57,065 nt of DNA from contig JBNJGY010000006.1 in assembly GCA_051748045.1 (NCBI GenBank), positions 1 through 57,065 on the forward strand. The letters run 5' to 3'. Source of the DNA: Thermotogota bacterium (GTDB lineage: Bacteria; Thermotogota; Thermotogae; Petrotogales; Petrotogaceae). Below, piece by piece: positions 54,001-57,000 of this stretch. Position numbers: made by a program. Position 1 is the first letter of the stretch, and every line of letters starts with the position of its first letter.

Positions 54001-57000
54001 TATAATATCTTTAAAAATTTTATTTTCTAATTCTCCTGATTTTTTATCTATTGCCATCAATTTACATTCATCTCTGGGTTCTACAGGAGTTTGAGCTATC
54101 ATTTCATCAGGTAAATGATAGTCATAATCACTAATTTTATACATTAACAAACCTCCGTATATCAAATAACTTGTTTTTATCAAATTGATACTCACTGAAT
54201 TTATCATTAGAAATCATATAATACCCCATTTTATTAGATAAATAAGTTATTAGCTCATCAGCTGGCGAATTATAATAAACCCTTTTTCTTTCTGATAATT
54301 TTTTCAGTATTTCTCTGTCTTCATATCCAAGATAATATTCAATGTTGCGATCAAAAACAATTACAGCTGGGAAAAATGTTAATTCATCTACAAACAAACT
54401 ATCAAGCATATTGAGTAAGAGATCAATTTTATTTCTGTTTTCATATCTAATAACATTACTTCCATCAATGATTATTCCTCTTGGATTAGAACTGTTCATT
54501 AGCTTATAATGATAAAAAGAAATATTTCTTAACTGTAAATTCAACATCTGTTTTTCATAATCATCAAAAGCAACGAAAATATCCTTTAATTTTCTATAAT
54601 AAGATTTTTTTGTTTCCAAAACATTTATAGAAAGAACCTCATCCAAGAATTCTTGTATAAAAGGACTCTTTTTATCCAAAGGAACATAGTTCATCAATGC
54701 AAATAAATCTGTATAATCCTTAAATTTAAATTTTTTCAAAATAACTCTGGCATCATAAAATTCAACACCGAATTTTTTAAGATATTTATTATAGTTTCCT
54801 GGTGGATGTTTTTGAGGATAAAGAATAAATTTCAAAGTCTGTATAGTTTCATCTTTCAATTTATAAAATTTTTGCATTTCTCTGAACCTATTATCCGATG
54901 GTTTTTTCATTATATGCATTAGTAAAAATTGGAAATCATTAATGTGTTTTCTCACAATTTTCCTCTCTGCATCTCTTCCTAACACTCTAAAAACCCAAAA
55001 CATTTTTCTATCATTTAATGTCTTGGGATTTTTTAAAACAGATCTCGCTCTGTTTATCATATTTTTCATTTTTTCCTTATGTGTTTCAAACTCTTTTTCA
55101 TTTATAATATTGTTTATAGTGTTTATAGACATTATGAATTAGCCCTTATTTCTAAAATGTCACCATCTTCAACTATTTCTTCTTTTCCTGCTAATTTTAC
55201 AAGACCTTTCTCTTTTAATGCTTGTTCTGACTTGTGTTCTATTAAATCTTTGTATTTCATTACTTGAGCTTTAATAAAGTTTTTTGATAATGCTGTGTGA
55301 ATCGCACCTGCTGCTTCTTTCATGTTTGTATTTTTCTTTATAGTCCAAGCTCTAACTTCGTCTTCTCCTACTGTGAAATATGAAATAAGACCTATATGAT
55401 CATAAACAACTGTAGACAATCTATCAATACCTGAACTTTTAATGTTTAGTTCTTCCATAAATTCTTTTTTCTCTTCTTCATCTAGTCCGTTGATATCTGC
55501 TTCTATCTTTCCAGATATTTCAAGGTAGGCGAGATCTAAATCTTTAACTATATTTAAAACTTCTTCTTTCCCCTCAAAATCATTGTTCACAAATTGATCT
55601 TCATCTACATTGACAACAACTATAATAGGTTTTAAAGTAAAAAGAGATAAAGAAGAAATGAGTCTTTTTTCCTCTTCAGATAAATCAATATCTTTAGCAA
55701 ATTTTTCTTCATTTAATACTTCACTGATTTTTGTAATTATTTCATATTCTTTTTGTTCCTCTTTAGTTGCCTTGTTTTTCTTTATTGCAATATCTAATCT
55801 CTCTATTCTTTTTTCTACAACCTCTATATCTCTGAAAATCATTTCTGAAATCAAAGTATTCAACTGTTTTAAAGGGGTTTCATTTTCTTCTGGAAATGGA
55901 ACCTGATCGTTTTCAAAAGCCCTTAAAACTAAAACCATAGCATCAACATTTTGAATCATCTGCAAAATCCTTGATTTTTCTTTAATATCAGCTTTAGCAT
56001 CAAAGCTTGGAATATCCACAAGATTTATTGTCGCATATGTAGTCTTTTTAGGATTATACATTTTTGACAAATTAGTAATTCTTTCGTCTTTCACTAAAGC
56101 TACTTTTTCTTCTGCTTCTGATTTATAACTTGGGTCAAAATCTTGTTCTGTAAGCAGAGAGAACATTGTTGTTTTTCCACTCATGGGTAATCCAAAAATC
56201 CCTATTTTCATCATTCAACCTCCTGGTTTATCGCTTCATATATATCGATATCATTATTTATTTTAATTTTTAAATCTCTTTTACTAATATCTTCATTTGA
56301 ATAATCTATAAATATTTCAATGTTTTTTTCGGGTTTTAAATAATCTAAATAATCTGCCCATTCTATTAAGTAAATATCTTCTTTATCTGCAAAAAGATCT
56401 ATATATTCTATCTCATATGGATCCTGAATCCTATATAAATCTATATGATGAATTCTTGGTCTTTCTCCATATATATTTTCGATTGCAAAAGTTGGAGAGG
56501 TTACCATAGCGTTTTTTATTCTACTTCCTATAAAATATTTTGAAAAAGTTGTCTTTCCTGTTCCAAGATCACCATATAATAAAATAACATGACCATCTCT
56601 CAAATTATTAGAAAGAGCTTTTGCAATTTTAGATATTTTTATCTCGTCAATATTTTTAAATTCTAAAATAACTCTTCCTCCTCAACCTTTTACAACATTT
56701 TTAGCTTCTTTTCCAGCTAAAACTGCATCGATATCCCTTGCTACCATCATAGACATTTCATCTCTCGTTTCTTTAGAAGCACTACCTATGTGTGGAGCAA
56801 CTACAACGTTGTCTAATTCAAGAAGTTTTTCGTTCACTTCAGGCTCAAATTCAAAAACATCTAAGCCTGCAGCAGCAATCTCTTTTTTCTCTAATTTTTC
56901 TGCAAGATAAGATTCATCTATAACTTTCCCCCTTGATGTATTAACTAAGACAGCATTTTTCTTTATTTTATCTAATTTTTCTTTATCAAGCATATGATCT

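Follow-up and report, generated by a model that had tools for sequence, protein, structure and literature searches.

Bacterial start-codon choice is taught as a selection among AUG, GUG and UUG enforced by initiation factor 3 (IF3), with infC, the IF3 gene, as the exception. This gene carries an autoregulated AUU or AUC start (ATT in E. coli) and, together with E. coli pcnB, represents a class of one or two genes per genome that needs a strict IF3. Broader departures are also described. In mycoplasmas, relaxed initiation accompanies replacement of IF3 residue R131 by P, F or Y, a change of the uS9 tail from SKR to TKR and altered 3GC pairs, as set out in the available text of PMC11775629. The same text describes mammalian mitochondria, which initiate at AUA and AUU and whose IF-3mt carries a KKGK motif, having lost RFRGR. 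In Deinococcus deserti, non-canonical starts with proteomic proof are reported for dnaA (ATC), rpsL (CTG), infC and one more gene (PMC2830850, available text).

Here we describe a member of the Petrotogaceae in which ATT, ATA and ATC (together AUH, as distinct from the canonical NTG-type starts ATG, GTG and TTG) very probably initiate tsaE and some tens of other genes. These starts resemble those of infC and pcnB in that AUH stands at normal spacing behind a strong Shine-Dalgarno (SD) site and would be read by fMet-tRNA, but they differ in involving 20–40 unrelated genes and in occurring with an IF3 that lacks R131. As in mycoplasmas, natural loss of R131 (here to L) is found alongside non-AUG starts; unlike mycoplasmas, Petrotogaceae retain the uS9 SKR tail, three intact G-C pairs and strong SDs, combine R131L with R25L/Q33K, and have genomes of 2–3 Mb. 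Relaxation at the third position, together with a lost RFRGR motif (MFLGR in Petrotogaceae), recalls mitochondria, whose mRNAs are leaderless, with f5C34, whereas the AUH genes of Petrotogaceae have SDs. With Deinococcus deserti they share lineage-conserved non-canonical starts on housekeeping genes, but the Petrotogaceae set is about ten times larger than the four genes there, is AUH-specific and is predicted from sequence.

The tsaE locus and its ATT start

The window analysed is the whole stretch of 57,065 nucleotides on contig C6 of the host genome (G000; 2.41 Mb, 28% GC), whose TsaE and IF3 have their closest named relatives in Petrotogaceae. The tsaE gene, encoding the t6A ATPase, occupies 56211..56669 on the minus strand and yields 152 residues when read from ATT. 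The inferred start codon, ATT at 56667..56669 (minus strand), receives a posterior of 1.00 from an all-codon start model and sits 7 nt behind the SD AGGAGG at 56677..56682 (minus strand), which is the modal SD spacing of the genome and that of 37% of trained ATG starts. The earliest in-frame canonical codon is a TTG at +22 (56601..56603, minus strand) with a weak SD. Upstream lies a 2-hydroxyacid dehydrogenase gene (56682..57065, minus strand) whose 5′ end is beyond the contig edge; its TGA (56684–56682) is also in the tsaE frame, 12 nt upstream of ATT. Downstream, the tsaE stop overlaps, as ATGA, the start of a YchF-like ATPase gene (55132..56214, minus strand; TIGR00092, 273 bits, just below the cut-off of 279.2).

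The product is an ordinary member of the TsaE family (TIGR00150, PF02367; 86.6 bits to TIGR00150 against a curated cut-off of 60.1), and only its start codon is unusual. Residues 2–142 align unbroken to residues 5–146 of PDB 6n9a_E, a full-length match, so the first 22 residues are part of the protein. The genome-wide survey's note had placed the start at ATT 56669, 22 codons ahead of the called start, and had stated that homology extends upstream of such calls; both points hold here, with the SD, its 7-nt spacing, the first canonical codon at +22 and the match of the extension to solved TsaE structures all in agreement. ATT is found at this position in all three genomes of the host's genus (g1), and the other two lack any canonical codon ahead of Walker A.

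The same note had proposed that gene callers truncate these genes. This is right only in part, as the NCBI record of the host TsaE already begins at ATT (152 aa). A single TsaE cluster contains Geotoga petraea records of 153 aa (SDC16308.1, TGG88180.1) next to others of 144 aa (WP_167848954.1) and 124 aa (JGI). Single AUH starts are present in some databases, but the pattern is applied inconsistently. In a single metatranscriptome study, three contig sets represent small shares and leave tsaE uncovered, so that they speak neither for nor against its start. Elsewhere on the contig, tsaD (41320–42324) starts at ATG. A 331-aa ORF (54137–55138) between ychF and queA gave no match in an NCBIfam and Pfam search; its C-terminal half presumably resembles an NYN/PIN nuclease motif.

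Conservation of the tsaE start column

A tsaE match was obtained from 25 of 26 family genomes, coded here by genus (g1–g10). At the start column, ATT occurs in the three g1 genomes and in g9, ATA in g2, g7, two g4 and six g8 genomes, and ATC in seven g6 genomes; the codon is canonical as ATG in three g10 genomes and as TTG in g3. AUH therefore occupies 21 of 25 family loci and seven of nine genera, which reproduces the earlier count of 21 of 25, the rest being three ATG and one TTG. Nine of the 21 AUH loci, drawn from five genera, contain zero in-frame canonical codons between the upstream stop and codon +10. In the remaining 12, an NTG lies 2–14 codons upstream, in most cases behind a weaker SD, locus L017 being a close call.

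The upstream setting varies widely. The gene before tsaE encodes a dehydrogenase in g1, g3 and g7; in g8 it is a 218-aa gene with its TAA overlapping the ATA, in g6 a 500-aa gene overlapping the start and in g4 a distant gene, with none in g2, g9 and g10; glycerol kinase and endonuclease III labels for tsaE neighbours are our assumption from motifs. The SD and ATC of g6 fall on the K-E-A and R-S codons of the overlapping gene at a spacing of 10, so this ATC is constrained and less certain as a start.

Outside the family, a canonical codon lies within −15..+6 in all 30 tsaE loci taken from eight other families; AUH is the best-SD codon in about five of them, all in the same gene overlap. Structurally, tsaE starts inside or just past the 3′ end of a 490–510 aa gene ending WKEA..RS..W in g6, in f2, f3 and f5, and in one f8 and one f9 genome. 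An NTG and an ATC candidate both come from this overlap, in which the AUH start of tsaE may have arisen.

AUH starts on other genes

The thiN gene (C2:8056) starts at ATA, with its next canonical codon at +60. Its best-SD codon is AUH in 10 of 11 orthologues fetched (25 matches in total), and thiN of G002 and G004 has zero in-frame canonical codons, in keeping with the conservation claimed for it. AUH on hflX, claimed for part of the family, is found in six of nine fetched orthologues (from 16 matches; one call is uncertain and one gene may be a paralogue), and mutS2 has ATT in three of four, once directly after an in-frame stop. With the query used (E≤1e-40), hflX was not found in nine genomes of g2, g4 and g8, which are mostly near-complete. 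A non-canonical start is thus kept, in the manner of infC, for tsaE, thiN, mutS2 and hflX; ligA and udg do not keep it outside the genus. In other genera AUH is found in 0 of 5 orthologues of each, with ATG or TTG at or near the same column, and the same canonical codons appear for the C57 ORF and an HI0933-like gene (3/3 each). These matching columns fix the N-termini of ligA, udg, the C57 ORF and the HI0933-like gene and date the switch to AUH to the host's genus, as had been suggested for ligA and udg. Independent tests back AUH starts on tsaE, thiN, mutS2, ligA, udg, hflX and a few dozen genes; aroC, which had been listed among them, was not confirmed, its ATT having a posterior of 0.03 and a GTG lying inside its SD.

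In all 21 Thermotogota read, including 11 of 11 outside the family, the best-SD codon of infC is AUH. Its conservation stands, and the infC start is not family-specific, since all outgroups share it. Genus g6 is mixed, with ATG starts on thiN and mutS2 (both G008) and on hflX (G013, G014) as well as ATC on tsaE and ATT on thiN of G012.

A second AUH candidate in the window is a Crp/Fnr-type regulator (1280..1966, minus strand; Pfam HTH_Crp_2 and cNMP_binding), whose ATA stands behind AGGAGGTGA. The start is assigned to ATA with a posterior of 1.00 in the host and to ATT with 0.99 in the same-genus genome G005, and a GTG within the SD is the sole alternative. The AUH set as a whole is mixed in function, including the Crp regulator, FlgH, shikimate dehydrogenase, an aminotransferase and membrane proteins (24 G005 orthologues and one window gene). 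Within 1280–4971, genes for a hemerythrin/PAS protein and a prismane (hcp) lie divergent from the regulator, an arrangement that we take to resemble a nitrosative-stress regulon. At C1:135301–142086, mutS2 and ligA, both AUH, lie within one same-strand gene cluster. An S4-FtsJ (TlyA-like) methyltransferase gene at C4:60587 has ATA both in the host and in G022 (L040), where the ATA comes just after an in-frame stop, while G005 scores ATG.

Genome-wide extent of AUH initiation

Raw SD-to-codon profiles across all ORFs are swamped by in-gene GAAGGA matches and were set aside; a likelihood start model was therefore used, which combines an SD matrix and spacer, upstream background, and N-terminal and interior codon use, and in which all 64 codons are estimated. 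The counts cover near-whole G000 and G005, plus 520 kb of the 2.5 Mb of G022. Among genes with reciprocal best hits, the model assigns 13.7 starts to ATT, 5.9 to ATA and 4.4 to ATC of 1527 in the host (AUH 24.0), and 18.1, 4.5 and 2.5 of 1530 in G005 (AUH 25.1). All other non-canonical codons reach at most 1.6 in these orthologue sets, and AAA, TTT and the like receive none. Over all coding-like ORFs, AUH takes 41.3 of 1995 (host) and 29.4 of 1772 (G005), with 18.2 and 13.0 starts, respectively, spread as noise over other non-canonical codons. Twelve bootstrap resamples give AUH counts of 12–25 and 15–36. Under an AUH-blind prior and an RBS score >3, the best non-canonical site is AUH in 15 of 22 host genes (p = 3.5e-9) and 14 of 18 G005 genes (p = 5.5e-10), the background share being 13%.

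Specifically, 31 host genes pass a posterior of 0.5 and an RBS score of 4; 13 of them have no canonical alternative and a further nine have as sole alternative an NTG inside the SD. Fifteen more ORFs with posterior >0.5 but low RBS were excluded as likely spurious. The model misses infC and mutS2, both supported by comparison, and comF, so that about 35 genes, the number given by the survey's note, is plausible; 20–40 is the honest range, or ~1–2% of genes. The note's tally of 44 of 71 weak-SD genes did not recur in that form, the comparable figure being 14 of 41 at spacing 7–9. AUH sites of the host recur in the second genome, at 84% median protein identity. Confident canonical starts keep their column between the two genomes in 917 and 935 cases, and a single clear ATG-to-ATC swap is too few for ATG/AUH swaps to serve as evidence.

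In G022, AUH takes 0 of 242 starts in the orthologue set and 3.8–5.6 of about 400. A 400-kb E. coli control gives 0.0 of 323, with infC missed and pcnB one codon off, and five same-size G005 subsets give 0, 5.0, 2.2, 7.7 and 9.2; the control is weak because infC was missed and one of the five subsets is also 0.

The genome has a strong SD consensus, AAGGAGGTGA, and the AUH genes, which were selected on RBS score, carry SD sites. None of them overlaps an upstream stop, against 16% of canonical genes (genes lacking an upstream stop on the contig excluded), and translational coupling was accordingly rejected as a general cause. Hydrophobic N-termini occur in 10 of 31 AUH genes and 371 of 1617 others, which is not a clear enrichment. 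Codon bias is slightly low (p=0.045), with no AUH gene above the 89th percentile. One ACG and one CTG candidate start are present in both G000 and G005.

IF3 and the initiation machinery

IF3 residues are numbered as in E. coli, a numbering verified against PDB 8jsg_A and the infC gene of E. coli. Analysis of ten family genomes reveals R131L and E134D in all ten, R25L in nine and Q33K in eight, G012 (g6) being a genome that keeps both R25 and Q33; the RFRGR motif becomes MFLGR. Outgroup IF3 keeps R25 in 11 of 11 genomes and R131 in nine, the other two being f9 genomes with I; in families f2, f7 and f8 both residues are unchanged. Among 120 protein matches listed, L131 occurs in 27 family-type sequences; in the remaining 93, residue 131 is R (87), K (5) or I (1), and R25 is kept throughout. 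Y107F and R129M are not family-specific and were rejected as causal changes. The two f9 genomes, G120 (L166/L206) and G127 (L170/L207), combine R131I with a retained R25, apparently a separate loss of R131; one of the two has an SD-led ATC candidate on tsaE, and one starts tsaE at ATG.

These positions bear directly on codon checking. AUH differs from AUG solely at +3, and R131 contacts +2U and +3G of the start codon and +4, with R131P raising non-AUG initiation, as described in the available text of PMC11775629. In E. coli, the R25A/Q33A/R66A mutant raises AUU initiation about 5-fold and AUA 1.5–2-fold; R25 is termed invariant, and Q33A alone has no significant effect (PMC9723500, available text). 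The published E. coli mutants are Ala and Pro substitutions, whereas the family substitution is Leu.

The rest of the initiation machinery appears ordinary. An altered initiator anticodon was rejected as a candidate: three CAT tRNAs are found and the initiator is normal, with anticodon CAT, an intact GGG/CCC stem (three G-C pairs) and U36-A37-A38. The uS9 tail FSKR is intact in G000 and G005. Loss of rsmA was likewise discarded, the gene being present over cut-off, and an rsmD-like gene is present at 104 bits, below its cut-off of 117.5. In 16S rRNA, read in G022 as it is unassembled in the host, the 790, 1338, 1400, 1492 and anti-SD motifs match; the 966 loop of G022 is, as we take it, slightly unlike the E. 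coli motif.

Origin of the AUH starts

The reading we favour, at a probability of roughly 55%, is that relaxed IF3 proofreading and strong SDs let AUH act as a weak start class in Petrotogaceae. Ordinary fMet-tRNA(CAU) would read AUU, AUA and AUC with a third-position mismatch, the complex being held by a strong SD at normal spacing. In most bacteria, IF3 rejects such complexes; in Petrotogaceae, the start-codon-contacting R131 is lost and most genera also lack the R25 and Q33 that grip the tRNA elbow, changes that, by analogy with the E. coli mutants, probably reduce the penalty on AUH. AUH would then form a fourth, weak start class on about 1–2% of genes, probably including old, family-wide cases (tsaE, thiN, mutS2, hflX) and cases gained within the host's genus (ligA, udg, HI0933-like flavoprotein). 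Its likely role is low output, and sensitivity to IF3 level may be a by-product. Supporting relaxed IF3, tsaE keeps AUH across seven of nine genera with all three codons and in five upstream contexts, and g6, in which the IF3 read retains R25 and Q33, has ATG on thiN and mutS2 of G008 and on hflX of G013 and G014. Against it, the coincidence of IF3 changes and AUH is a single one, at the level of one clade; G022 shares the family IF3 changes yet has 0 of 242 AUH starts in the orthologue set (3.8–5.6 of about 400 otherwise), g6 keeps R25 but has AUH on tsaE (ATC) and on G012 thiN (ATT), and the codon-bias signal for low expression is weak. Since G022 and f9, where R131I occurs in two genomes of which one has an ATG tsaE, fit the mechanism imperfectly, the link is one that we infer. 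A tentative extension, with the odds clearly against it, holds that Petrotogaceae IF3 ceased checking the third base (R131L, then R25L/Q33K), that AUH became a standing fourth class, and that a core set (tsaE, thiN, mutS2, hflX, infC) was selected off AUG and is tuned by IF3 level or fidelity.

The AUH starts could also be real and require no special machinery, strong SDs and AT-rich pressure having allowed genes in low demand to slip from ATG to AUH, as could happen in any bacterium with strong SDs, with the IF3 changes incidental. Such drift accords with the 28% GC genome, the AUH infC of all 11 outgroups and the genus-specific gains, and genome-wide counts within Thermotogota come only from genomes with altered IF3; in E. 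coli, moreover, AUH supports initiation on some mRNAs at a few per cent of the AUG level (PMC5499595, available text). We nevertheless consider it rather unlikely: tsaE has stayed non-ATG over seven genera while shifting among ATT, ATA and ATC, any of which a single change would turn into ATG, confident canonical starts of G000 and G005 hardly ever swap (one ATG-to-ATC against the 917 and 935 kept), and the IF3 changes strike exactly the residues tied to codon checking. Rather than individual genes drifting, most AUH calls might simply be wrong, the true starts being nearby NTGs (inside the SD, upstream or forced by overlap) or the genes truncated or mis-assembled. The 12 tsaE loci with an upstream NTG, the g6 ATC lying on Arg-Ser codons of another gene at spacing 10, and the 18 noise starts of the all-ORF model leave some room for this, but it is very improbable given 13 host genes and nine tsaE loci with no usable NTG, recurrence of the same sites at 84% median protein identity, and homology that covers the N-terminal extensions.

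The survey's note had read the AUH start of tsaE as a sign of fidelity-linked feedback, which would make the conserved AUH genes a selected regulon that senses initiation fidelity as infC does, tsaE acting either by way of IF3 level or by t6A on the initiator tRNA. Family-wide conservation, the concern of tsaE, hflX, infC and the TlyA-like methyltransferase with translation, and the U36-A37-A38 of fMet tRNA are compatible with such a circuit. On the other side, A37 of E. coli fMet-tRNA is not known to be modified in vivo, the tsaD gene of this window has an ATG start, most listed AUH genes are unrelated to translation or t6A, and the circuit would be blunted if IF3 checks codons less strictly. 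The in vitro modification of an E. coli initiator transcript by TsaBCDE (PMC8887486, available text) is compatible with a t6A route. Positive evidence for feedback was not found, and with tsaD at ATG and a functionally mixed AUH set we regard it as improbable. The family IF3 changes, R131L and mostly R25L/Q33K, are new and appear the likelier cause than feedback.

Implications

The literature searched, in which coverage of subscription journals is limited, does not report multi-gene AUH initiation or these IF3 changes in Petrotogaceae. On the practical side, the N-termini deposited for the family are inconsistent. Because one lineage combines dozens of AUH starts with natural substitutions at IF3 residues to which E. 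coli mutants point, nature offers a test of whether the start-codon repertoire depends on R131, and a possible screen would count AUH starts in lineages that lack R131 or R25. If the tentative extension above is true, Petrotogaceae would represent a free-living, strong-SD bacterium converging on mitochondria and mycoplasmas.
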